From an uncultured Desulfobacterales bacterium (GTDB lineage Bacteria > Desulfobacterota > Dissulfuribacteria > Dissulfuribacterales > QOAL01): 64,000 nucleotides of DNA. The stretch is taken from the NCBI GenBank assembly GCA_964638145.1, contig CAZXAK010000007.1, positions 151,757 through 215,756 on the forward strand, in the 5' to 3' direction. Below, piece after piece: positions 18,508 to 38,539 of the stretch (its first letter is position 1; each line of letters begins with the position of its first letter). The notes beneath the pieces are model-generated. The model was not told the DNA's origin. It saw nothing but the letters and a program-made list of their open reading frames with translations, and did no database searches. A program made the position numbers and the translations under genes.

Positions 18508-19332
18508 TCATGCTTCAATAATTTCAAGCGGCTCTGCCTGGCCTATTTCTCCGTTCACATGAGCTATATGGCCAATTCTCCGCCAGTTTCTGTGTAACAG
18601 TCCGGCCCCGTAGGCATCTATGGCCACAGGGTCAAAGGATGCAGCAACTATTTTCACTGGCGGATCACAATGAGGGCCATGTAGATGGGCCTGTGCCATG
18701 CCGATCCTCGCGTCCAGCAAGGAGAAGTCAGGTGAACGGTATCTGTTGAGGTCTGCTATTGCCTCCTGGATCCTGGTGTGAAACGCAGATTTTTTCCATG
18801 CCCCACCCTGTTGGTAATACCTGGGAGGGACCATGCCCATCATGTTCTTCATGCTTATGGTCACCCCTGCAAGTGTATGCGCCTTTAGTACAGGGACAGA
18901 GATCAGGAAACTATCAAGGACTATTCGTGGCAGGAACATATCGGGCCAGCGTTTGCATTTTGGGTTGGAAAGCCTTATGCACTCTTCTGTGTTCAGGTCT
19001 ATCAGTCGTACGTTTTTTGTTCTTGCAAGCTCCTTGTACCCTAGTTTTTCAAAGGGGTACCACGTATCATATTCAAGAGAGCCTGTTCCTTCGCCAATGA
19101 CCACCTCTACATCCGAGACCTCTCTGATATAATCGATAAGCTGATTGATGATATCAGTGGGAGTAGTAATGGGAGGTGGCAGTGCCTCCACTACGTTGGG
19201 TTTGATAAGTACCCTTTTTGCATGGTGTAAGGCAGAGGCAAGGGCAGTGGCATCAAGTAGGCGCGGCAGATCAGGCTGCCTGCTGCTGGATCTTAGGAAA
19301 AATACCTTTCCCTTGTTCCATTTCCTGTCCAT
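18508..19332 (-). CDS. DUF362-domain protein (uncharacterised, often Fe-S associated)
   Basis: 274 aa. The motifs VLIKPNVVEA...VVIGEGTG...LKAHTLAGVTISMKNMMG match my recollection of the DUF362 family. Function is unknown. Confidence 0.6.
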   Translation of the reverse strand: MDRKWNKGKVFFLRSSSRQPDLPRLLDATALASALHHAKRVLIKPNVVEALPPPITTPTDIINQLIDYIREVSDVEVVIGEGTGSLEYDTWYPFEKLGYKELARTKNVRLIDLNTEECIRLSNPKCKRWPDMFLPRIVLDSFLISVPVLKAHTLAGVTISMKNMMGMVPPRYYQQGGAWKKSAFHTRIQEAIADLNRYRSPDFSLLDARIGMAQAHLHGPHCDPPVKIVAASFDPVAIDAYGAGLLHRNWRRIGHIAHVNGEIGQAEPLEIIEA

Positions 19333-19335
19333 GCG

Positions 19336-19773
19336 TCAGAGATGACTCCACAGGTCCAGCAAACCGGCATTTTTTATGATTTTGCCCTGTATATCCACAA
19401 TGGGTATCTCTTTTATGTCGCTCTCTATCATGGAGTCAACCACGCTGTCTATGGGGGTGTCGAGGGTGGCCTTCAATAGGTTGGTAGTCATGATATCTCT
19501 GGCCTTGCTGCAGGTAATGCAGCGTAGCAGGCGTCTTGTACCAAATGCCTTGTTGTATCGGCGGGCCGTTATGTTTCTGATGAGTTTCCCCAAGGAGATG
19601 GCCCCTTTGAGGTGACCTTTACGGTCTGTAACATATATACCCCTAACATCGGGTTTTTGTCGCAGTATGTGGGCAATCTCACGCAAGGTCGTCTCTTCAG
19701 GCACAGAGAGAAAGGGATGTCCCTCTATTTGATCAATAACGTCCTTTATGCGTGGCTTTTCCTGGTTGTCCAT
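19336..19773 (-). CDS. CBS-pair domain protein
   Basis: 145 aa. Two CBS-like halves (FLSVPEETTLREIAHIL...GIYVTD..GHLKG and ARDIMTTNLLKATLDTPIDSVVDSMIESDIKEIPIVD). Confidence 0.75.
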   Translation of the reverse strand: MDNQEKPRIKDVIDQIEGHPFLSVPEETTLREIAHILRQKPDVRGIYVTDRKGHLKGAISLGKLIRNITARRYNKAFGTRRLLRCITCSKARDIMTTNLLKATLDTPIDSVVDSMIESDIKEIPIVDIQGKIIKNAGLLDLWSHL

Positions 19774-19997
19774 GGGATGTAAGGAAATAGTTGACAGCTC
19801 TTGCCCACATGCTTGGGTCTATCCCGTTCTGAGAATATAGATCATTCCCGTAGGTTTTAATGTCCCTGTGGGTTGCAGCATTCAGCAGGGTAATGTTTTG
19901 GAGAAATGGTGTGGTGGGGGCATGTCTCCGTTTCCTTCCTGTGATAATAAGCTCGCATATGGTGCAAGTTGGGACTGCGGCATTGGCTATTGGGAAT

Positions 19998-25041: not shown

Positions 25042-25118
25042 TAAAAATATAGACGAATAAGGAAAGAAAAATAAAACAAAAAAATAAAACAACAACTTAG
25101 ATATGAAAGGAGATAGCC

Positions 25119-25328
25119 ATGAACACTACTACAAATATCAGAGATAGGGAACTCGTAAGGGGAAACGTCGATGTTGGAACCGAGGCCTCGAAGACAGCTC
25201 TCGGTGTGGGTCTTGGTCTTGCTGCTCTGGTTGGTCTTTGGGGTGTAGCCTGTTTGGTTGGCGGATTGGCCTCGGCAGGCGTTATCGATACAGTAGCCGG
25301 TTACCTGAGAGCCGTTACCGGTGTGTAA
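25119..25328 (+). CDS. 69-aa small membrane protein, paralogue A (unrecognised family; polar N-terminus plus glycine-zipper TM)
   Basis: MNTTTNIRDRELVRGNVDVGTEASKTALGVGLGLAALVGLWGVACLVGGLASAGVIDTVAGYLRAVTGV. The RBS is GAAAGGAGATAGCC-ATG. It has its own promoter and terminator, and five paralogues of identical length exist. Confidence 0.85.
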   Translation: MNTTTNIRDRELVRGNVDVGTEASKTALGVGLGLAALVGLWGVACLVGGLASAGVIDTVAGYLRAVTGV

Positions 25329-25406
25329 ATAGCCCAGCACATAGGAAGGTGAAGCGACGGTTACAATAAATACCCTCACCCCACAACATTCTCTCCATGC
25401 AGTACA

Positions 25407-25439
25407 AAGGCCGGTTGAAAGACCGGCCTTTTCTTTTTG
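25407..25439 (+). terminator. Rho-independent terminator, unit A
   Basis: AAGGCCGGT-TGAAAG-ACCGGCCTT followed by TTCTTTTT. Confidence 0.8.
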
Positions 25440-25515
25440 TTGCCCAAATATAGTGCCGGGCGCTTGTGAGGAGTGACAGGCAGTTCAAAACTACACATTT
25501 GATGCAAAATTATAG

Positions 25516-25549
25516 AAGCAACATTGGTGTTGCAACATATTTGTTGCGA
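25516..25549. promoter_or_regulatory. Upstream activator site for unit B
   Basis: AAGCAACA, GTGTTGCAACA (25527-25537) and TTGTTGCGA are phased about 11 bp apart, about 145 bp upstream of the promoter. Confidence 0.6.
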
Positions 25550-25669
25550 TATGCTGTCAAGGTTGGGGGACCGGGTGCAAAAGGAAGGGGTCTTTCCCTA
25601 AGTGGTGTAAAAAACAATAAAATCAAGTAGTTGTTTAAGGTAAAATGTTGTCTTTACAGCGTGCCATGT

Positions 25670-25685
25670 TGGCACGACATATGCA
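25670..25685 (+). promoter_or_regulatory. sigma-54 promoter, unit B (TGGCACGACATATGCA)
   Basis: GG 25671-72 and GC 25683-84 are in the 12-nt register. A perfect IHF-consensus-like AATCAAGTAGTTG lies between the activator site and the promoter (about 25620-25632). Confidence 0.8.
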
Positions 25686-25754
25686 TTTATATAAAAGCGA
25701 AATGGCAAACAACATATGATAATTTAATAGAAATATAAGAGAAAGGAGATAGCC

Positions 25755-25964
25755 ATGAACACCAATACAAATATAAAAGAAAGAGAATTGGTAAGGGAAA
25801 ATGTAAACATAGGAACCGAAACCTCCAAGACCGCGCTGGGAATCGGTCTTGCCCTTGCAGCCCTTACAGGTCTGTGGGGCGTTGCCTGCCTCATGGGTGG
25901 CCTTGCAACATCCGGGGTAGCTGGGGTGGTCACCGGTTACGTAAGGGCAGTGGCCGGGGTGTAA
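25755..25964 (+). CDS. 69-aa small membrane protein, paralogue B
   Basis: MNTNTNIKERELVRENVNIGTETSKTALGIGLALAALTGLWGVACLMGGLATSGVAGVVTGYVRAVAGV, with the same RBS block as units A and C. Confidence 0.85.
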   Translation: MNTNTNIKERELVRENVNIGTETSKTALGIGLALAALTGLWGVACLMGGLATSGVAGVVTGYVRAVAGV

Positions 25965-26038
25965 CTTAGAATCTCGCACAGGTAAAATTCCGTTACATAC
26001 TGAGACTGAGACAGCTAACTGTAGGGGCTGCCTCAAGA

Positions 26039-26070
26039 GGGCCGGATCAATTGATATCCGGCCTTTTTTT
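26039..26070 (+). terminator. Rho-independent terminator, unit B
   Basis: GGGCCGGAT-CAATTGAT-ATCCGGCC followed by TTTTTTT. Confidence 0.85.
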
Positions 26071-26255
26071 GTGGTGTAGGATACGATCTGGAAGACCCCG
26101 TGTCTCCCCGTGTCAAGTGATATCTATCCGCGGTTATCCAGTCATGCGCTAAACAGGGAATGGTTCCCGTATCTTGTCTGTTTCATTGCATTTTTTGTTA
26201 CCTGTAAAATATTGCCCTACGTTTTTGTTGCATTTTTGGGGGATGGCTACACTTA

Positions 26256-26265
26256 TGTTGCAACA
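26256..26265. promoter_or_regulatory. Upstream activator site for unit C (TGTTGCAACA)
   Basis: A perfect 10-bp palindrome about 138 bp upstream of the promoter. Extra half-sites are TTGTTGCAT (26225-26233) and TGTTGCGA (about 26356). Confidence 0.55.
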
Positions 26266-26392
26266 TGATCGTTGTTATGGAACCCGAATAGATACAAAGG
26301 CTGTCAACAGTATGGTTTTGAGGGTTTGTGGCGATAAAGTTTAATGAAAACAGTATGTTGCGATAGAGGTTTTTTTGATAAATAAATTTGTT

Positions 26393-26408
26393 TGGCACAT
26401 CATATGCA
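26393..26408 (+). promoter_or_regulatory. sigma-54 promoter, unit C (TGGCACATCATATGCA)
   Basis: GG 26394-95 and GC 26406-07 are in the 12-nt register. Confidence 0.8.
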
Positions 26409-26481
26409 ATATCAATAGGCAAGAAGGGAACGAAAGTGACATAACCACTAATTGACTGATGATAGTCGAAAGGAGATAGCC

Positions 26482-26691
26482 ATGAACACCACTACAAATA
26501 TCAAAGACAGAGAACTGGTTAGGGACAATGTTAATGTTGGTACTGAGGCGACAAAGACTGCTCTTGGAGTAGGAATTGGGATGGCCACCCTGGTAGGTCT
26601 GTGGGCCGTTGCCTGTCTCATTGGCGGAATTGCCTCTGCCGGCCTTATCGGGGCTGTGGCCGGTTACGTAAGAGCAGTGACGGGGATGTAG
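26482..26691 (+). CDS. 69-aa small membrane protein, paralogue C
   Basis: MNTTTNIKDRELVRDNVNVGTEATKTALGVGIGMATLVGLWAVACLIGGIASAGLIGAVAGYVRAVTGM. The start is set at ATG 26482, behind the conserved GAAAGGAGATAGCC block; the ORF track starts 30 nt upstream. Confidence 0.85.
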   Translation: MNTTTNIKDRELVRDNVNVGTEATKTALGVGIGMATLVGLWAVACLIGGIASAGLIGAVAGYVRAVTGM

Positions 26692-26750
26692 GTGTGTTAG
26701 GTAAAAAGGTGGGGAATGATATAGGTCATGCCTCACAATATTCCGGTAAG

Positions 26751-26783
26751 GGCCGATATAACAAAGTTATATCGGCCTTTTTG
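26751..26783 (+). terminator. Rho-independent terminator, unit C
   Basis: GGCCGATATAAC-AAA-GTTATATCGGCC followed by TTTTTG. Confidence 0.85.
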
Positions 26784-26959
26784 TTTAAGGAGTGCGTTGA
26801 GGTTGAGGGCGCGGCAAGGGACATAAGGGTATCATATAGAAGAGAATTTTGCCGGGGCAGGCTGCGAGTGATTAAAAACGGGGTGGTGGAGCAGGCTTGC
26901 ATGACCATTTCCCCTGATGGGCAGTGTGGGCTGGGGGGGGCAATGTGATGCCGGGTATC

Positions 26960-26983
26960 TGTTGCTACACTTTTGTTGCAACA
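26960..26983. promoter_or_regulatory. Upstream activator site for unit D
   Basis: TGTTGCTACA (26960-26969) and a perfect TGTTGCAACA (26974-26983), about 210 bp upstream of the promoter. Confidence 0.55.
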
Positions 26984-27182
26984 CAACTGTAGAAAAGGCA
27001 CGTATAGTGTGGTGGATTGCACTGGTAAGCGCTTAATGAGCAGAACGTGCGTCCGGAAAATATGTTTAAATTCTAACAGGCTGCGTTTCGTTGCTAAGGT
27101 GTGAAATTATTCCCATTTTTCTTTTGTATTTATCAGTGTGATTTCATGGTGTTGTATAGCCTGTCTGTTGTGCGGCGGATTT

Positions 27183-27198
27183 CGGCACAATCGTTGCA
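27183..27198 (+). promoter_or_regulatory. sigma-54 promoter, unit D (CGGCACAATCGTTGCA)
   Basis: GG 27184-85 and GC 27196-97 are in the 12-nt register, with TTGCA at -12. Confidence 0.7.
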
Positions 27199-27253
27199 GT
27201 TACTATATGCAAAACTACGAAGCAAAGGACAATAAATGAAAGGAGAAATAGCT

Positions 27254-27463
27254 ATGAGCGTTAATGTTGATATAAAAAATAGGGATAAGGTCAAAGAGAG
27301 TGTGGATGTTGGTGTTGAGGCATCTAAAACGGCGCTGGGGGTTGGTATAGCTCTTTCGGCACTGGTGGGGCTGTGGGCGGTTGCATGTCTCATCGGTGGA
27401 CTATCCTCATCGGGTGTTTTGGATACCATAAGAGGTTACATTAGTGCCGTAACCGGAATGTGA
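27254..27463 (+). CDS. 69-aa small membrane protein, paralogue D
   Basis: MSVNVDIKNRDKVKESVDVGVEASKTALGVGIALSALVGLWAVACLIGGLSSSGVLDTIRGYISAVTGM. The RBS is GAAAGGAGAAATAGCT-ATG; the ORF track starts 18 nt upstream. Confidence 0.85.
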   Translation: MSVNVDIKNRDKVKESVDVGVEASKTALGVGIALSALVGLWAVACLIGGLSSSGVLDTIRGYISAVTGM

Positions 27464-27513
27464 GCTGTATATTGATCTTTGCAGATTATTAGTGGACCTG
27501 AAGGAGGTAGAAA

Positions 27514-27807
27514 ATGGATAAGGGAACTGGCAAGATGGCAGGGAATATTGCCCTGGGGTTTGGCGCGCTCGTTGGGTTATGGGCTGTTTCTGCATTTGTA
27601 GGTGCAATTTATTCTGCAGGCGGTCAGGTGTCAGAAGTGATACGGGGATATATGGTTGCTACCGGTCTGATCACTCCGCTTCATAATCTGGTCGATTATT
27701 ATACGCACATCAAAGGAGTAGAATATCTCATCTGTGTAGCCTTCTTTGTGGTATTTCCTGTATTCTACAAATCGCTTTCAAGAGAGAAAAAAGCGGCGCG
27801 GGCTTGA
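27514..27807 (+). CDS. 97-aa divergent paralogue E with an extra C-terminal TM segment, co-transcribed with D
   Basis: Its core GNIALGFGALVGLWAVSAFVGAIYSAGGQVSEVIRGYMVATG aligns with the family core (GLW.V....G......G...V.GY..A.G). It continues with YLICVAFFVVFPVFY plus a basic tail. RBS GAAGGAGG. It starts 50 nt after the D stop with no promoter or terminator in between. Confidence 0.75.
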   Translation: MDKGTGKMAGNIALGFGALVGLWAVSAFVGAIYSAGGQVSEVIRGYMVATGLITPLHNLVDYYTHIKGVEYLICVAFFVVFPVFYKSLSREKKAARA

Positions 27808-27845
27808 TTCATAGGTAGCCTTATCACACTTCCCATCTTACCGCC

Positions 27846-27882
27846 AAGGCCGGGGCATCGCCACTCCGGCCTTTCCATTTTT
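27846..27882 (+). terminator. Rho-independent terminator, unit D-E
   Basis: AAGGCCGG-12 nt-CCGGCCTT followed by TCCATTTTT. Confidence 0.7.
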
Positions 27883-27898
27883 CAGAAACCGGTAGAGG

Positions 27899-28055
27899 GT
27901 ATCTGCTTACAGGGTATCACATCTACTATCTCGAAGTCTTACTTGCCTGTTGGGTACTTTTAAGTACAGGGAGTGTGTCTGCGTATCCCCCGCTTTGTAT
28001 CAGTCGCACGCTGTAAGTAGATACATCTCAGACAATTGTCCAATAATACCCGCAA
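27899..28055 (+). repeat. 157-bp interspersed structured repeat, copy A (second copy at 52053-52209)
   Basis: It aligns by eye along its whole length with 52053-52209, sharing blocks TTTGCCTG, TTTTAAGTACAGG, CTTGTATC, CAGATACAT.TCAGACA.TTGT and ATAATACCCG.AAA. An internal long-range inverted repeat pairs GTATCTGCTTACAG (27899-27912) with CTGTAAGTAGATAC (28011-28024). Confidence 0.7.
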
Positions 28056-28524
28056 AAAATCTTCTGAGGAGTTACGGTAGAGGGCATCTGGCAGATTATA
28101 AAAGAAGCGAGGCCCTTTGAGCTAGCTCTTGCCCCATAGTGTCACAATGGTCGTTCAGCCACGCCTTTGCTGCTGCCGCAACCGTAGAGTCAGTACAATA
28201 TCATTTGTGTCATATGGTTATGATTTCAATTTATCAATGAGGCGTCATTCCCGTTTGCCCATTCATTTGGTGTGCTGACGGGAATTGTTTGGTGGCCGAT
28301 GGCAAGCGCTGGTCCCTGCAAGACAGTAGAAGATATGGGCTTTTGACGGTTATGTGTTTGTCTGTTTCCTTGGAACCCCCAAAGTTGGTTTGATGTCCTG
28401 AGTGTGCTTTTCAGTTTAGAAAAGATGATTTTTGCGTGGATATTATTGTGTTTTTGCGGCCAGTTTTTTAAAAAAGCAAATAAAATCAGCAGGTGTATAT
28501 TTTATTTATTCTCATCAACAGTTG

Positions 28525-28534
28525 TGTTGCAACA
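28525..28534. promoter_or_regulatory. Upstream activator site for unit F (TGTTGCAACA)
   Basis: A perfect palindrome flanked by CAACAGTTG and GAATTGTTGAA, about 128 bp upstream of the promoter. Confidence 0.55.
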
Positions 28535-28651
28535 GAATTGTTGAAATTATATCATCATCAATCGCTATTCAGGTACATGTCATTTTAAATTTCTAAATAA
28601 AAAAACCTTATTACAGTAAGTTACTAAATTAGGGCACTCTGTTGGCAGATA

Positions 28652-28667
28652 TGGCACGAGTTATGCT
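28652..28667 (+). promoter_or_regulatory. sigma-54 promoter, unit F (TGGCACGAGTTATGCT)
   Basis: GG 28653-54 and GC 28665-66 are in the 12-nt register. Confidence 0.75.
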
Positions 28668-28785
28668 CTATAAATTATGACGGATTATAAAAGTAGATGT
28701 TAATGCTAATTCACAGAGCGTAATTAGTACATATGCTCAAATTAGTATGTAAGGCCATGACAATCTTTAATGAAAGGAGATGACC

Positions 28786-28995
28786 ATGAACGCGAATGTT
28801 AATGCAAAGGGCGATGAGCTTGTTAGGGACAGCGCTGATGTAGGCAGTGAAGCTTCAAAGGCGGCTCTCGGTACAGGAATCAGTCTGGCAGCGTTGATCG
28901 GTCTTTGGGCTGTAGCATGTCTTATTGGAGGATTGGCGGCCGCAGGTCTGATTGGTGTGGTAACTGGATACATCAAGGCTGTAATTGGCATGTAG
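28786..28995 (+). CDS. 69-aa small membrane protein, paralogue F
   Basis: MNANVNAKGDELVRDSADVGSEASKAALGTGISLAALIGLWAVACLIGGLAAAGLIGVVTGYIKAVIGM. The second ATG (28786) gives the family-standard 69 aa and RBS spacing (GAAAGGAGATGACC-ATG). Confidence 0.8.
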   Translation: MNANVNAKGDELVRDSADVGSEASKAALGTGISLAALIGLWAVACLIGGLAAAGLIGVVTGYIKAVIGM

Positions 28996-33692: not shown

Positions 33693-34094
33693 TTATTTTT
33701 CTTCTGGTGCCGCCATAATGCGTGCAATAGGTTCAAAGGCCTCACAGTCCATGCACATCTCTATTTTTTCTCTCGGCGAGTTGGGTAGGCATTTTTCACA
33801 GAAGGTGCCGTTTATGAACCAGCACAGTTTCCCTACGTTGAATTCCCAGGCCGGGCATCTGTACTTTACCTCCTCAGAGCATTTCTTTACATCCCAGCAT
33901 GGCTTCAGGTGTCCATTTATCCCCTTCATACGGGATATGAAAAAGTATATCTGCCTTTCAACATAGACAGGTACGGTCCGCCATCCCTGTTCGTAGCTGG
34001 AGATGGTCTTCTGAGAGGTCCCCAACAGCTCTGCCATTTGTTTCTGTGTCCTGCCGAGGATTTTTCTGGCATGTGCAAATTCTTTATTGGTCAT
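33693..34094 (-). CDS. XRE-family HTH regulator fused to a Cys-rich C-terminal domain with two CW motifs
   Basis: The N-terminal HTH is FAHARKILGRTQKQMAELLGTSQKTISSYEQG. The C-terminal domain is CWDVKKCSEEVKYRCPAWEFNVGKLCWFINGTFCEKC...CMDCEAF, with 9 Cys residues. It is divergent from the cytochrome operon. Confidence 0.75.
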   Translation of the reverse strand: MTNKEFAHARKILGRTQKQMAELLGTSQKTISSYEQGWRTVPVYVERQIYFFISRMKGINGHLKPCWDVKKCSEEVKYRCPAWEFNVGKLCWFINGTFCEKCLPNSPREKIEMCMDCEAFEPIARIMAAPEEK

Positions 34095-34230: not shown

Positions 34231-34282
34231 TTAAATGCAACTTGTGATTTACGGACTCAGGAAGATTTAGGAGGAATCGAGG

Positions 34283-35629
34283 ATGAAAAAAGCAATTTTC
34301 AAGGGACTTTCGGTAATTTTTTTCTGTCTAACTGTTCCCATGTTTCTGGTTTCAGTGGCGGCCTCAGAGGATCTGTCTGATAGCAGTGAGTGTATTTCCT
34401 GCCATACAGACCTTGAGGAGATGGATGATTACGGGGCTGAGGCAGCAAGTGCCGCGGCCGCGGTGGCCGGGTGAGGCGTTTCTGCGCCCCAGGTCAGGGG
34501 GCGTGATACCTTTGGCGTAGCCAAGGACTTTCTTGATACACCGCATGGAGAACTTGGGTGCCGGTATTGCCATAAGGGCAAGAACGTTGACGATGAGGAG
34601 GAGGCCCATGAAGGGCTCATAAGGGATCCTTCCGATGCCAACGGCGGTGGAGTATGTGCTGAGTGCCATGAGGAGATCACGGAGACTTTCAAAACCTCTA
34701 TGCATTATACTCTAAATGGTATCATGGACATAGTAAAGACCATATCTTCTCCTCACAAGATGCAGGATACCCTCTTGCCTGAGGCATGGGCACTGGATTG
34801 TGCCGAGTGTCACGCAAGTTGTGGTAGCTGTCATGTGGCATGGCCTCACGTATCCAAGGGTGGACTTATTGACCGGCACAGGTTTCAGAAAAAACCTCCG
34901 ATGGAGAAGACCTGTTTTGGCTGTCATGGTTCCCGTTTTGCCGGTGAATATGTCGGTTTTCTTGGTGAGAATGCAGACGTACATTACTCAAAAGGCCAGA
35001 TGGAGTGCTACGACTGCCACAAGGGCTCCCAGTTCCATGAAACCAAGCCAAAGGGGGCCAAGCGCTACTATGCCACAGAGACTCCACGCTGTGAAAACTG
35101 CCATCCAGATGCAGTGGCAGGCCGTTCGAGCATCCCAATGCATAATGCACACGGCAAGGATGTGCTGGCATGTCAGGTATGTCATGCAACCACCTACTTC
35201 AACTGTCAGAATTGCCATGTTTCGCTTGATGTGAAGAAAAAGGGCGAGATAAAGGTCATTTTCCCGTCAGATCCACTTTATACTTTCAAGATCGGCAAGA
35301 ATATTGATGTAAGCCCCAACAATCCATACAAGTACAATCTTGTCCGACATTCACCCATGAAGAAGGACTCTCTTGCCTCTTTGCGTTATTTCCAGAAGGT
35401 GCTCAAGGGAAAACCAGGTCCTGAGGATCTGATTTCCAACTGGGATGCACTTCCCACATGGAATTCTGCAGCGGTCCATAGCATACAGAGAAAGACTCCA
35501 CAGAATCAGTCCTGTAATTCATGCCATGGCGTGAAAAAGCTCTTTCTTACCAAGGATGACATTAAACCAGATGATCCAAAGGCCAACTATAAGGTAGCTG
35601 TGGACGTTCCACCTGCGATTAAAAAGTAG
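34283..35629 (+). CDS. Secreted 11-haem c-type cytochrome with a predicted selenocysteine (UGA at 34472-34474, residue 64)
   Basis: ORFs 34283..34474 and 34700..35629 are in the same frame. The 75 codons between them have no stop and encode CRYCH and CAECH. The N-terminal part has a signal peptide and CISCH, while the downstream ORF alone has none. There are 11 CXXCH in total, and a SECIS-like hairpin follows the TGA. Confidence 0.7.
34485..34503 (+). other. Bacterial SECIS-like hairpin (CGCCCC-AGGUCAG-GGGGCG)
   Basis: A 6-bp GC stem begins 11 nt after the UGA. The apical loop carries GGUC at +21 to +24 from the U of UGA, compared with +22 to +25 in the E. coli fdhF SECIS as I recall it. Confidence 0.6.
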
Positions 35630-35656: not shown

Positions 35657-36622
35657 ATGAATAAGTACGCGTATTTGTTGATGTTGCTGGTTGTGGGAGT
35701 GGTTCTCGCCGCTGTTATAGCTCCTGGGATATCCAGGGCAAGGACTGCTGACCCCCTTGTGTCCACAGACTGGCTGAACAAGCATATGGGGGACAAGTTA
35801 GTGGTTGTTGTGGATATCAGGACCGGGGCAAATTATGCCTTTGCGCATATACCTCATGCGGTTTCTGTGCCATACACAAATATCGAACCAAAGAATGAAA
35901 AGGGTCTGTTCATGCTTCCATCCACCAAGAAGATGACAGAGCTGTTCCGCAAGGCCGGAGTGAACAGAAAATCCCATGTCATTGTATATGGCCATGGAAA
36001 TACGGTCAGTGACGCATCCAAGGCCGCTGCCACTTTCTGGGCACTTAAGGCCATGGGGCACAGGAATGTCTCAATGCTGGATGGGGGTTTTACCAAGTGG
36101 ACTTTCGAGGGGCGTGTAGTAACCAAAGAAGTCCCTAAGGTCAAGAAGGGTAACTTCAAGGCGGTGGTGGACGCCTCCCTTATTGCAGACATGGATGAAG
36201 TGGCAAAGGCAGTAAAGAGCAGGCGGGCTGTTCTGGTTGATGCAAGGAACTCCATTCAGTATTTTGGACATGAAAAGCGGGCAGATGTGACCTGTTTCGG
36301 TCATATTCCCGGTGCAATAAATCTGCCTGCAGATTTCCTGTCCAATGCTGGCATAAACCGTGCTCCTGCCACTGTCAAGTCCAAGGATGATCTGCGCAAG
36401 ATGGTACGTGGAGTCGGTATTCCCGACAAGAAGTCAGTGCCAATCATTGTCTACTGTAATACTGCTCAGCTTGCAGGGCTCAACTATCTCGTTTTAAAGG
36501 ACCTGCTGGGCTACACCAATGTAAAGGTATTTGATGGTTCCATGCTGGAGTATTGTAACCTCAATGGGAAGTTGCCTGTTGAGCGGTTTTCCTGGAGCCT
36601 GAATGCACCACACGGCAAGTAG
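35657..36622 (+). CDS. Periplasmic tandem-rhodanese sulfurtransferase (SseA/thiosulfate sulfurtransferase-like), active-site Cys present
   Basis: Signal peptide MNKYAYLLMLLVVGVVLAAVIAPGISRA. There are two rhodanese domains; the C-terminal catalytic loop is IVYCNTAQLAG. Confidence 0.85.
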   Translation: MNKYAYLLMLLVVGVVLAAVIAPGISRARTADPLVSTDWLNKHMGDKLVVVVDIRTGANYAFAHIPHAVSVPYTNIEPKNEKGLFMLPSTKKMTELFRKAGVNRKSHVIVYGHGNTVSDASKAAATFWALKAMGHRNVSMLDGGFTKWTFEGRVVTKEVPKVKKGNFKAVVDASLIADMDEVAKAVKSRRAVLVDARNSIQYFGHEKRADVTCFGHIPGAINLPADFLSNAGINRAPATVKSKDDLRKMVRGVGIPDKKSVPIIVYCNTAQLAGLNYLVLKDLLGYTNVKVFDGSMLEYCNLNGKLPVERFSWSLNAPHGK

Positions 36623-36641
36623 CCTGGAAGGAGGAAGAGTT

Positions 36642-37598
36642 ATGTATATGAAAAAGAGTATGATTATTGCTGCCATAGTAGCGGTATCCATGCTGTTCAC
36701 CGCCTACTGCGTCGGTGCAGCCCCAAAGGTTTCGTCGGACGGGTTGGTTACCGTGGAGTGGCTTTCAAAACATATGGATGACAGGGGCGTGGTTATCCTG
36801 GATGTCCGGACATTTCCTAAATATATGAAAAATCATATACCGGGTGCCATAAGGGCCTTTGGTCCCTGGCGTCTTACCAATGAAAAATTCGTTGGATTCA
36901 TGGCCCCTCCGGTTGGAGAGCTTGAGGAAATGTTGAGGGAGTTTGGTGTATCAAATGATTCCCTGGTCATTATCTACGATCAGGGCATGACATCAAGTGA
37001 TACGGCAAAGAGTGCCAGGGCACTCTGGACATTACATATGCTTGGCCATACCAATGTTGCGATTCTCGATGGAGGGTTCAATGCATGGGAGCAGAAGGAA
37101 TTGCCCTTGACGGCAACGCCGGCCATACCGGTCAGAGGCAATTTTACAGCAAAACCGGTTGCCAAAAAGGCCATAAGCCTTGAAGAGGTACAGAAGAAGC
37201 TGGGTTCCAAGGGTACCATTTTCCTGGATTGCAGGATACCTGCCGAACATTTCGGGCACGAGAAAAAGAGCAATATAGCCCGCTTCGGTCATCTGCCAGG
37301 TTCACTGTTGATGCCAGCCTCATTCCTGACAATTGGTGGACAGAACTTCTCTCCGGCCTATCTCCGAAAAAAGGATGAGCTGCGGCAGATGGCTTCAGGT
37401 GTGGGGCTGCCAAACAATTCCGGAGCCGAAATAGTTGTTTACAGCAATACTGGAGAAGAGGCCGCATTGTGTTATTTCGTGCTAAATAATATGCTGGGTT
37501 ATAATAATGTAAGGTTGTTTGACGGTTCTGTACTGGAGGCTGCCAAGGCAAAGGATATTGCCATGGTTAGATACTCCTGGGGCTGGAATGACAGATGA
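36642..37598 (+). CDS. Periplasmic tandem-rhodanese paralogue with Ser replacing the catalytic Cys
   Basis: The signal peptide is MYMKKSMIIAAIVAVSMLFTAYCVGA. It is collinear with the upstream rhodanese, but the catalytic loop reads VVYSNTGEEAA. GGAGG lies 7 nt before ATG 36642. Confidence 0.8.
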   Translation: MYMKKSMIIAAIVAVSMLFTAYCVGAAPKVSSDGLVTVEWLSKHMDDRGVVILDVRTFPKYMKNHIPGAIRAFGPWRLTNEKFVGFMAPPVGELEEMLREFGVSNDSLVIIYDQGMTSSDTAKSARALWTLHMLGHTNVAILDGGFNAWEQKELPLTATPAIPVRGNFTAKPVAKKAISLEEVQKKLGSKGTIFLDCRIPAEHFGHEKKSNIARFGHLPGSLLMPASFLTIGGQNFSPAYLRKKDELRQMASGVGLPNNSGAEIVVYSNTGEEAALCYFVLNNMLGYNNVRLFDGSVLEAAKAKDIAMVRYSWGWNDR

Positions 37599-37666: not shown

Positions 37667-38539
37667 ATGTGGAAGAATAGTTATGTTATATTTGCTGCTG
37701 TTGTGGCATTTGTGCTGGTAGCAGTATCTGCTGCGCAGGCAGGACCACCACTTACAAATGCCGAGGGTGTGGGAGGTATAGCGCTGAATCCTGTTGCCTA
37801 TGTGGCAAATCCCCTCAAGGAGGGGGACAAGGGACTGTTCGGTGCTGGAATCGTATCCAAACCCCAGTTGGGTGCGTGGTATATTGGACTGAACGAGAGT
37901 CACGTCAACTGGTTCACCACTGGAGGTAATATCTCATTCTTCAACCGGGTTGAGATCGGTTATTCTCATGAGTTCGTGGATGTGGAAGGGCTGCAGAACA
38001 TCAACAAGGATAACTTCAGTATCAAACTCAACCTGATCAAGGAAAATGACTTCGGCATGAGCTTTTTGCCTGCGTTCTCCTTTGGTACCATCTACAAGAA
38101 TACGGATGCCGATGACAGTCTCGACCTGAAGGATTCAGACGACTGGGATTTCTACTTTGTTGCCACAAAGATGATAACAGCTCTGCCAGTGCCTGTGATG
38201 CTCAATGCAGGGACACTCGGTACCAAGGGATTTGTCCGCGGTGTGCTGGGGTTTGGCGATGACAGGCAGTGGACGTTTTTTGGCAATATCGACGTGGTGC
38301 TCCTGAAGAAGTTCATTCTGGGGTATGAGTATCAGCAGGATGTTGATGTTGGAAACGTATTCAAGGGAGAGAGTGGGGCAGACCATTCCACCCATTCCAT
38401 GTGGGAAATCCATCTTGCCTACATGCACAACGAGCATCTGATGCTGGTTGCCTCCTATGCGTATACAGGCGACAAGGATGCGGTCAGTCAGGCATCGTTC
38501 GGTAACGCACTGGTACTTTCGGCACAGTACGCGTTTTGA
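37667..38539 (+). CDS. Outer-membrane beta-barrel protein (porin-like, unknown family)
   Basis: The signal peptide is MWKNSYVIFAAVVAFVLVAVSAAQA. Alternating amphipathic beta-strand patterns run throughout, and the C-terminus ends in the OMP signature LVLSAQYAF. Confidence 0.7.
   Translation: MWKNSYVIFAAVVAFVLVAVSAAQAGPPLTNAEGVGGIALNPVAYVANPLKEGDKGLFGAGIVSKPQLGAWYIGLNESHVNWFTTGGNISFFNRVEIGYSHEFVDVEGLQNINKDNFSIKLNLIKENDFGMSFLPAFSFGTIYKNTDADDSLDLKDSDDWDFYFVATKMITALPVPVMLNAGTLGTKGFVRGVLGFGDDRQWTFFGNIDVVLLKKFILGYEYQQDVDVGNVFKGESGADHSTHSMWEIHLAYMHNEHLMLVASYAYTGDKDAVSQASFGNALVLSAQYAF

Follow-up and report, generated by a model that had tools for sequence, protein, structure and literature searches.

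A review of prokaryotic selenoprotein families from May 2026 lists three kinds of cytochromes or CXXCH proteins, namely ExtKL, the GSU2204 family and the octahaem Otr proteins of selenocysteine (Sec) type (PMC13188914). MccSep (ExtKL, GSU2937-2936) of Geobacter sulfurreducens, published in 2025/26, is a selenoprotein with five haems that acts as a polysulfide reductase, with Sec325 located in a C-terminal immunoglobulin (Ig)-like domain adjoining a haem ligated by His and Cys239 (PMC13510729). MccSep shows that Sec next to a haem is able to reduce polysulfide, which is its preferred substrate, and the enzyme also reduces selenite (PMC13510729). The rhodanese ExtH and the porin ExtI are encoded in the same locus (PMC5877670). 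Here we describe a gene at positions 34283-35629 of a 64,000-nt stretch of contig CAZXAK010000007.1 from an uncultured Desulfobacterales bacterium (hereafter the window; all gene coordinates are window positions). Judged from its sequence and that of its relatives, it is almost certainly one genuinely Sec-decoded gene for an exported 11-haem cytochrome c. The finding is strongly supported and the reading of the UGA codon as Sec stands, albeit multihaem selenoproteins as such are already known: the statement in the original prediction for this locus that no characterised multihaem cytochrome uses Sec is outdated, since MccSep does so (PMC13510729).

Like MccSep, the protein is a periplasmic multihaem cytochrome c; in both genes, an in-frame UGA interrupts the reading frame and is followed by a hairpin that resembles a selenocysteine insertion sequence (SECIS). 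Both proteins place Sec in a Gly-flanked loop, which is mobile in MccSep, and show a Sec/Cys pattern in their families; both loci encode a rhodanese-like protein and an outer-membrane channel (a putative one here), and both occur in Desulfobacterota and Nitrospirota hosts. The protein differs from MccSep in having eleven haems instead of five, in carrying its Sec after haem 1 (Sec64, in the context G-G-U-G) rather than in a C-terminal Ig-like domain (Sec325, in the context DGUP), and in belonging to a family without conserved Cys outside the CXXCH motifs, whereas MccSep has the haem-ligating partner Cys239. Unlike MccSep, the 11-haem family is also found in Bacillota, Spirochaetota and Chloroflexota. 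Since haem number, Sec position and the absence of a non-motif Cys all differ, we treat it, as far as the open-access literature shows, as a second multihaem selenoprotein family, which is distinct, widespread and unannotated, separate from MccSep and apparently of independent origin.

An exported 11-haem cytochrome very probably encoded across a UGA codon

The two open reading frames (ORFs) that the original prediction had joined share one frame, in which a single TGA comes between them at the coordinates given there, and this TGA (codon 64) is the only one before the TAG stop of the read-through frame at 35627-35629. Translation yields the predicted product of 448 amino acids with 11 CXXCH motifs and Sec at residue 64 (Table 1). 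Inspection of the sequence ahead of ATG 34700, where the downstream ORF had been called, revealed no Shine-Dalgarno site comparable to the one that precedes ATG 34283. The signal peptide, recognised by eye and predictor-free, consists of MKKAIFK, a hydrophobic core and VAA/S; its restriction to the upstream piece holds, and the truncated downstream calls of relatives have no signal peptide either. The 75 codons between the UGA and ATG 34700, which are skipped by ORF callers, encode the haem motifs CRYCH and CAECH. The chance of about 3% that had been calculated for this spacer to remain open, (61/64)^75, is arithmetically right and is superseded by direct evidence for purifying selection (see below).

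In an alignment of 37 reconstructed proteins, C37xxC40H41, U64 and all haem motifs are invariant. The 11 conserved CXXCH motifs, the signal peptide and the Pfam matches Cytochrome_C7 and c3_2 identify the protein as a c-type cytochrome; genes for cytochrome maturation were not seen in the 64-kb window. Sec64 is placed on a Gly-rich tether of variable length between haem 1 and haem 2, and the family motif around it reads G-[GA]-U-[GA]-x-x-x-P. As TGA ends 19 of the 39 long ORFs in the window and is thus the commonest true stop, the genome is not recoded. The one other promising pair of ORFs in the window with a single TGA between them in one frame (18508-19818, minus strand, TGA at 19336-19338) was rejected as a second selenoprotein gene, as it turned out to be two adjacent genes with the downstream start right after the stop; judged from translation alone, one encodes a CBS-domain-like protein, and the other is an unidentified 274-aa ORF.

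Conservation of the UGA codon and coding constraint across it

For the comparison with relatives, 546 confirmed relatives from species-representative genomes were collected using the C-terminal haem motifs as bait; 80 of them were kept, and 79 loci cover the site. The homologous codon is TGA at all 79 and TAA or TAG at none, in hosts from at least six phyla (Desulfobacterota, Nitrospirota, Bacillota, Spirochaetota, Chloroflexota and Actinomycetota). The loci include isolate genomes of Anoxynatronum buryatiense Su22 and Thermanaerothrix solaris, whereas the Desulfurivibrio, Desulfocapsa and Thermodesulfatator lineages are represented by metagenome-assembled genomes. Upstream and in frame, all 79 loci encode a signal peptide or lipoprotein signal peptide, the haem motif C-[IV]-x-C-H-T, a low-complexity linker that varies among loci, and G-[GA]-TGA-[GA]-x-x-x-P. 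Between the window and the relative L001, we counted 15 synonymous and 5 non-synonymous substitutions 5' of the UGA and 37 and 9, respectively, 3' of it.

A protein search returned 307 relatives, nearly all of 340-390 aa, which cover about 82-85% of the query and start a few residues past the UGA; none of the truncated selenocysteine-type calls among them has a signal peptide. The possibilities named beforehand, that homologues terminate at the UGA or start downstream with a signal peptide of their own, therefore fail, the sole signal peptide being upstream of an invariant TGA. The public record L083 (GCA_053991135.1, JBMYFN010000124.1, positions 1249-2595) contains the same locus, split into ORFs of 63 and 365 aa, and this split annotation recurs in hundreds of database entries. 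NCBIfam holds no selenoprotein model for the family, and an N-terminal profile retrieved from the 90%-identity database only small N-terminal ORF fragments, among them the exact 63-aa ORF of the window. One relative (L013) has an extra in-frame TAA 63 codons past the UGA, where its relatives have CAA (Gln) within the haem motif C-R-Q-C-H; this is probably a sequencing error of the metagenome-assembled genome or a pseudogene.

A SECIS-like hairpin that accompanies the UGA codon

The hairpin described in the original prediction, with the core stem CGCCCC (34485-34490) and GGGGCG (34498-34503) around the loop AGGUCAG (34491-34497), was reproduced by RNAfold, which extends the stem to 7 bp and adds a lower stem, with a free energy of -23.9 kcal/mol for 34478-34509. 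Counted from the U of UGA, G22 and U23 lie in the loop. The SECIS of E. coli fdhF and the bSECISearch model place the hairpin about 11-13 nt after the UGA, with loop G and U at about +21 to +24. The hairpins of the family agree with fdhF in the distance of their start and the placement of the loop G and U, and they differ from it in their unrelated sequence and in having no obvious bulged U.

When the UGA-containing genes were folded one by one, a hairpin started 12-13 nt after the U in every one. There are 37 distinct hairpin sequences at this place, with clade-specific stems such as GCCCCUC/GAGGGGC, GCGCCGGA/UUCGGCGC, GGCCCGC/GCGGGC and UGGCUCC/GGAGCCA; each stem position shows several Watson-Crick pair types among the family hairpins, and at least six contiguous pairs are formed in 67 of 80 genes. 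The apical loop contains G(N)U in 73/80 genes and starts at +19 or +20 in 73/80, and G21 and U23 are conserved to at least 90% in an ungapped alignment. RNAalifold found no consensus structure for the ungapped 45-nt alignment, because the register of the hairpin shifts by 1-3 nt between clades, and was replaced by per-sequence folding, a rank test with sliding windows and negative controls from homologues without UGA. Measured against the rest of its gene, the fold is far beyond chance: in the window gene, the 27-nt segment from +9 to +35 ranks second of 417 in stability (-13.9 compared to a mean of -3.6), and 69 of the 80 UGA-containing genes have the homologous segment among their own most stable 5%. 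In all seven homologues without UGA (three with TGT/TGC, one with TAC and three with TGG), the same segment is ordinary, with ranks of 274/441, 339/401, 392/428, 312/687, 70/356, 179/426 and 74/413. The hairpin thus accompanies the UGA and not the encoded peptide, as expected of a SECIS.

Residues at the selenocysteine column

A profile search of 1.84 billion representatives retrieved 1940, 737 and 207 relatives at E <= 1e-3, 1e-10 and 1e-30, respectively. About 38 of the best 150 start exactly at the boundary after the U and are thus of the selenocysteine type (counted by eye). The residue at the U column was read by mapping an N-terminal hidden Markov model onto the full-length relatives. 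Cys was found in 12 clusters (at 50% identity), in a preserved glycine-rich context (G-x-G-C-G-G; GGGCGG, GEGCGG and GECCGG among others); these homologues are single full-length proteins, and TGT and TGC codons were confirmed. Tyr and Trp occupy the column in five clusters each, Met in two, His in one or two and assorted residues in distant members; three of the five Trp clusters were checked and all have genuine TGG codons. On the question raised beforehand, whether the column is Cys or Sec elsewhere, core-family members have Sec, and the 12 clusters with Cys are more distant. As read from these sequences, Sec and Cys alternate in the classical manner, and the chalcogen has been lost in some lineages.

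The idea that haem-ligand residues alone replace Sec was rejected, as the Trp variants are real TGG codons and not TGA translated under code 4. Natural variants with Tyr (TAC) or Trp (TGG) are available in L081/L082 (P0088) and L091-L093 (P0178, P0152, P0154). A partly decayed hairpin remnant (GCUCC-GUU-GGAGG) is still visible after the TGG codon of L091, which suggests a recent conversion of TGA to TGG. In P0140, a fragment of 142 aa, only a short linker connects haem 1 with haem 2, and the Sec/Cys loop is missing from it; the loop may therefore be an insertion specific to the Sec/Cys subfamily.

Eleven haems are paired with only ten conserved His residues outside the motifs (H88, H109, H141, H199, H234, H252, H287, H290, H356 and H399), and one haem must therefore have another ligand (Sec64, Met207 or Met240) or an open site. 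Sec64 might be the distal axial ligand of one c-type haem (His/selenolate), with rhodanese-delivered sulfane sulfur being reduced at Se-Fe; we regard this as a minority possibility. The replacement of Sec by Cys, His, Met and Tyr fits an axial-ligand role, and its replacement by Trp does not. To our knowledge, His/selenolate-ligated haems have so far been made by protein engineering alone.

Selenocysteine machinery beside the gene in spirochaetes

In seven spirochaete loci (L036, L045, L047, L051, L052, L069 and L070), ARAGORN detected a tRNA-Sec gene about 1.9-3.6 kb upstream of the UGA of the cytochrome gene. The ORFs in between encode SelA and SelB (identified with Pfam for L036 and by tblastn in eight loci), and the gene order is selC-selA-selB-Sec-cytochrome-resB-ccsA, the cassette spanning about -3.6 to +3.3 kb around the UGA; in some spirochaete loci, a rhodanese gene lies upstream of selC. 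ResB and CcsA, which constitute system II of cytochrome c maturation, are encoded downstream in 21-22 relatives. The arrangement in the spirochaetes would make little sense if the UGA were not decoded as Sec, and the machineries for Sec and haem maturation may be kept or transferred together with the Sec-cytochrome gene.

Relationship to known protein families

Searches of NCBIfam with the window protein and the 37 members returned only generic multihaem matches that fall well short of the cutoffs (ExtM, the GSU2203 and DmsE decahaems and NrfB). The window protein does not match NF040886 (ExtKL) at E <= 1, and this family is outside the 25 families most matched by the 37 members, of which at most one could match it; NF041027, the CXXCH selenoprotein of the GSU2204 family, was not among the NCBIfam matches. 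TIGR04315 (Otr) is matched weakly by four of the 37 members (best E = 2.5e-7, far below the cutoff) and not by the window protein. The 11-haem family is absent from the table of the above review (PMC13188914), and the NCBIfam scan did not assign it to any of the other selenoprotein families listed there. It resembles the Otr octahaems of selenocysteine type in being a multihaem selenoprotein linked to sulfur-oxyanion chemistry, these being given as 'GenBank annotated' in the review (PMC13188914), and is unlike them in haem number and Sec position, with all TIGR04315 matches remaining below the cutoff. A probable family member has been grouped with SirA/Otr-like cytochromes in a study of Dethiobacter (PMC10376724).

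A phmmer search of all PDB sequences gave nothing (best E = 0.23). AlphaFold2 (AF2) modelled the 384 aa after the UGA as a helical haem domain with a small beta domain behind it, at a predicted local distance difference test score (pLDDT) of 89.6 and a predicted template modelling score of 0.86, and Foldseek found no PDB match for this model at E <= 0.001; as Foldseek is weak on haem-packed, loop-rich folds, this is no proof of a new fold. The model of P0088, a fusion with a rhodanese, matched rhodaneses only. If Sec64 sat at a haem, the protein would resemble TsdA, SoxAX and DsrJ, in which a chalcogen residue at a c-type haem serves S-S chemistry on substrates of the thiosulfate or polysulfide type, an analogy that is also drawn for MccSep; a sequence relationship to these enzymes was not detected, and, unlike the protein described here, they have 1-3 haems.

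Gene neighbourhood

The cytochrome gene is part of a predicted rhodanese/cytochrome operon on the plus strand. In 65 of 79 loci, a rhodanese ORF is found on the same strand between -4 and +5.5 kb, usually adjacent, and several of the 14 other loci are on short or end-truncated contigs. The first rhodanese gene of the window has counterparts directly downstream of the cytochrome gene in L001-L032 and L034; its product keeps the Cys of the C-terminal active-site loop (YCNTAQLAG) and shows a weak similarity to ExtH. The second rhodanese gene probably starts at the internal MKKSMII near 36648. Cytochrome and rhodanese are fused in P0047, P0088 and L040, and a relative of the Cys type has a rhodanese downstream, too. 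Genes for an NrfC-like 4Fe-4S protein and for NrfD (PsrC family) are found in two relatives of the Chloroflexota type, upstream in L071 (-3212 to -399), where a further multihaem cytochrome lies beside them, and downstream in L092 (2629-3455); they are a possible module for quinol-linked electron input.

The DUF3034 protein encoded after the rhodaneses is, judging from its sequence, a probable outer-membrane beta-barrel or channel. The divergent XRE-family regulator is found beside the cytochrome gene in the closest relatives (L001, L002, L004 and L011, 50-71% identity) and is called as a gene in L083.

Table 1 Features of the Sec-cytochrome locus in window coordinates.
Feature	Position	Strand	Description and basis
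XRE-family helix-turn-helix regulator, divergent, candidate operon regulator	33693..34094	-	133 aa; Pfam HTH_3, HTH_19
Shine-Dalgarno sequence AGGAGGA	34269..34275	+	7 nt 5' of ATG 34283; read from sequence
Selenoprotein gene, very probably a single Sec-decoded gene	34283..35629	+	448 codons, UGA(Sec) codon 64, 11 CXXCH; translation, architecture common to 79/79 related loci
Sec-type signal peptide	34283..34363	+	residues 1-27, predicted cleavage VAA/SE; translation inspected, relatives alike at same place
Haem-1 motif CISCH (C37-H41)	34391..34405	+	5' of UGA; C..CH invariant in all N-terminal reconstructions
UGA codon 64, read as Sec	34472..34474	+	context AAVAG-U-GVSAPQ; TGA in 79/79 loci, Cys in 12 distant clusters
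SECIS-like hairpin	34478..34509	+	upper stem 34484-34490/34498-34504 (7 bp), apical loop AGGUCAG 34491-34497; RNAfold
Exported tandem-rhodanese protein 1	35657..36622	+	321 aa; Pfam Rhodanese, two domains
Exported tandem-rhodanese protein 2	36603..37598	+	Pfam Rhodanese, two domains; second downstream gene in L001-L032 and L034
DUF3034 protein, probable outer-membrane protein	37667..38539	+	signal peptide, C-terminal ...AQYAF; Pfam DUF3034; in L001, L002, L004 and L011 only

At a distance from the operon, the window contains an array of five tandem paralogous units of about 223 nt (25105-28994, with units at 25105, 25741, 26468, 27240 and 28772) that are 64-76% identical. Three or more of the units, and probably all five, code for a protein of 71-79 aa on the plus strand with a conserved hydrophobic C-terminus (...LVGLWAVACLIGG...AV[TI]GM), and a sixth ORF of 97 aa with a related motif lies at 27514-27807. 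The spacers of the array are long, 24.5-29.5 kb contains no ORF of 150 aa or more, and there is no Pfam match.

Proposed function

In Wolinella succinogenes, the periplasmic rhodanese-like protein Sud feeds the polysulfide reductase Psr. The near-constant rhodanese neighbour suggests that the 11-haem cytochrome is probably a new kind of sulfur-compound reductase. We lean slightly towards an enzyme of sulfur redox chemistry (polysulfide, thiosulfate or persulfide) that works together with a rhodanese, and only tentatively, at somewhat less than even chances, towards the reductive direction specifically. As in the Sud-Psr pair, a periplasmic rhodanese would serve as sulfur carrier to a terminal reductase, and the NrfD/PsrC-type membrane subunits near some relatives belong to the same quinol-oxidising family as that of Psr. 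Unlike Psr, which is a molybdopterin enzyme, the catalytic subunit here would be a haem/Sec protein.

From the sequence and its comparison with relatives, we propose that the hairpin 12 nt after UGA-64 would recruit SelB-GTP-Sec-tRNA(Sec), so that Sec would be inserted in place of termination. The pre-protein would be exported via its N-terminal signal peptide and receive its eleven haems in the periplasm, where the co-transcribed exported rhodaneses and the putative outer-membrane channel would join it in a molybdenum-free sulfane-sulfur reductase. A rhodanese would pick up sulfane sulfur from polysulfide or thiosulfate as Cys-persulfide; Sec64, held on a flexible Gly-rich tether, would use its selenolate to attack this S-S bond or else free polysulfide, giving an Se-S adduct, which the haem chain, in some relatives perhaps fed with quinol electrons via NrfCD-type modules, would reduce to sulfide. 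On balance, we consider this account as a whole, i.e. a Sec-containing 11-haem cytochrome acting with rhodaneses as a molybdenum-free periplasmic sulfane-sulfur reductase, to be the probable one. Proteome data from Dethiobacter alkaliphilus are consistent with it, as the multihaem cytochrome DealDRAFT_1917, a probable family member that has rhodanese genes next to it and had previously been misnamed a thiosulfate sulfurtransferase, was reliably upregulated on thiosulfate (PMC10376724). A sequence link between the relative P0050 and DealDRAFT_1917 was not established, the contigs found being metagenomic.

Alternative explanations

Several observations weigh against the proposed account. In isolation, the hairpin of the window gene is not significantly more stable than shuffled sequences (z = -1.55), so that our judgement rested on the comparison with relatives, and Rfam returned no match to SECIS or any other family even at E <= 10. 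None of selA, selB, selC and selD was found in the 64-kb window, where 20 large ORFs were compared with NCBIfam and SelA and SelB served as tblastn queries; its tRNA genes are for tRNA-Val only. In the second rhodanese, the active-site Cys is replaced by Ser (YSNTGEEA), and this protein may be a non-catalytic sulfur-binding or adaptor paralogue. The presence of Trp, Tyr, Met or His at the Sec column implies that the residue is dispensable or differently used in some lineages, and in the AF2 model of the Tyr variant P0088 the pLDDT is below 50 across the loop, so that the position of Sec relative to the haems is unreliable. Substrate and direction of the reaction are drawn from gene context, and the membership of DealDRAFT_1917 in the family is probable by description, not by sequence.

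Sec64 could alternatively be, in the main, an axial haem ligand that tunes the redox potential, the protein then being an electron-transfer conduit or a reductase of metals (e.g. Fe(III), or in extracellular electron transfer) and not a sulfur enzyme. Eleven haems with ten conserved non-motif His, the replacement of Sec by the haem ligands Cys, His, Met and Tyr in relatives, and the restriction of the weak generic profile similarity to electron-transfer cytochromes (DmsE, the GSU2203-type decahaem and NrfB) would suit such a role, and the Dethiobacter relatives of such cytochromes have been discussed as electron-transfer proteins (PMC10376724). The near-universal same-strand pairing and the fusion with rhodaneses, however, point to sulfur or selenium chemistry, Trp as a further replacement of Sec is not a haem ligand, and the probable Dethiobacter member (by description) is upregulated on thiosulfate versus ferrihydrite (PMC10376724). 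The use of Sec is costly, moreover, and typical of catalytic residues. We therefore judge this explanation unlikely.

To about the same degree we doubt that the enzyme works in the oxidative direction, as a thiosulfate, sulfide or persulfide dehydrogenase of the TsdA/SoxAX kind that feeds the haem chain, e.g. in sulfur disproportionation. Among the hosts are many that disproportionate sulfur or oxidise sulfide (Desulfobulbaceae, Desulfocapsa, Desulfurivibrionaceae and Ca. Sulfobium), enzymes with a His/Cys-ligated haem do oxidise thiosulfate, and rhodaneses serve both directions. Nothing in the sequence fixes the direction, but the family is also present in fermentative or respiratory Bacillota and in spirochaetes that are not known as sulfur oxidisers, and the one proteomic hint, from the probable Dethiobacter member (by description), comes from thiosulfate-reducing cells.

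Oxyanions of selenium or tellurium as physiological substrates, in detoxification or selenium acquisition with the rhodaneses as selenium carriers, appear quite improbable. Selenite is a further substrate of MccSep, the locus of which bears the name of a selenite/tellurite reduction operon, rhodanese is reported to be able to carry selenium, and the gene is linked to selCAB in spirochaetes; MccSep nevertheless prefers polysulfide, and the broad spread in sulfur-cycling anaerobes together with the capacity of eleven haems suggests respiratory flux and not trace-element handling. Finally, that public annotation such as that of JBMYFN010000124.1 and hundreds of other split calls is right, with TGA acting as the normal stop that it is elsewhere in this genome to end a 63-aa mini-cytochrome ahead of a separate protein of about 365 aa and with the hairpin being incidental or attenuator-like, can hardly be reconciled with a downstream part that has 10 haem motifs and yet no signal peptide in any truncated selenocysteine-type call, with a stop that is always TGA, with coding constraint that is continuous across codon 64, with full-length Cys homologues, with a hairpin that tracks the UGA and with sel genes adjacent in spirochaetes.

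Implications

If confirmed, the proposed Sec-containing 11-haem cytochrome would represent a second, evolutionarily independent combination of selenocysteine with a multihaem cytochrome. Its spread across phyla is far wider than that of MccSep: the family comprises 207 clusters at E <= 1e-30 and is present in no fewer than 546 species-level genomes. Since current annotation wrongly divides the gene into two ORFs everywhere, metabolic reconstructions miss it. Direct consequences are the need for annotation that takes selenoproteins into account, by way of an NCBIfam 'exception' model, and for attention to selenium dependence in cultivation media. The order selC-selA-selB-gene-resB-ccsA in spirochaetes suggests a portable unit, in which the machineries for Sec and haem maturation may be kept for one protein. 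Through its partnership with exported rhodaneses, the protein becomes a testable candidate for a step that has long been missing, the reduction or interconversion of zero-valent sulfur and thiosulfate independently of molybdenum. Such a step would be relevant to sulfur disproportionators (Desulfobulbaceae, Ca. Sulfobium), to alkaliphiles that reduce sulfur and thiosulfate (Dethiobacter) and to anaerobes among the Gram-positive bacteria and spirochaetes.

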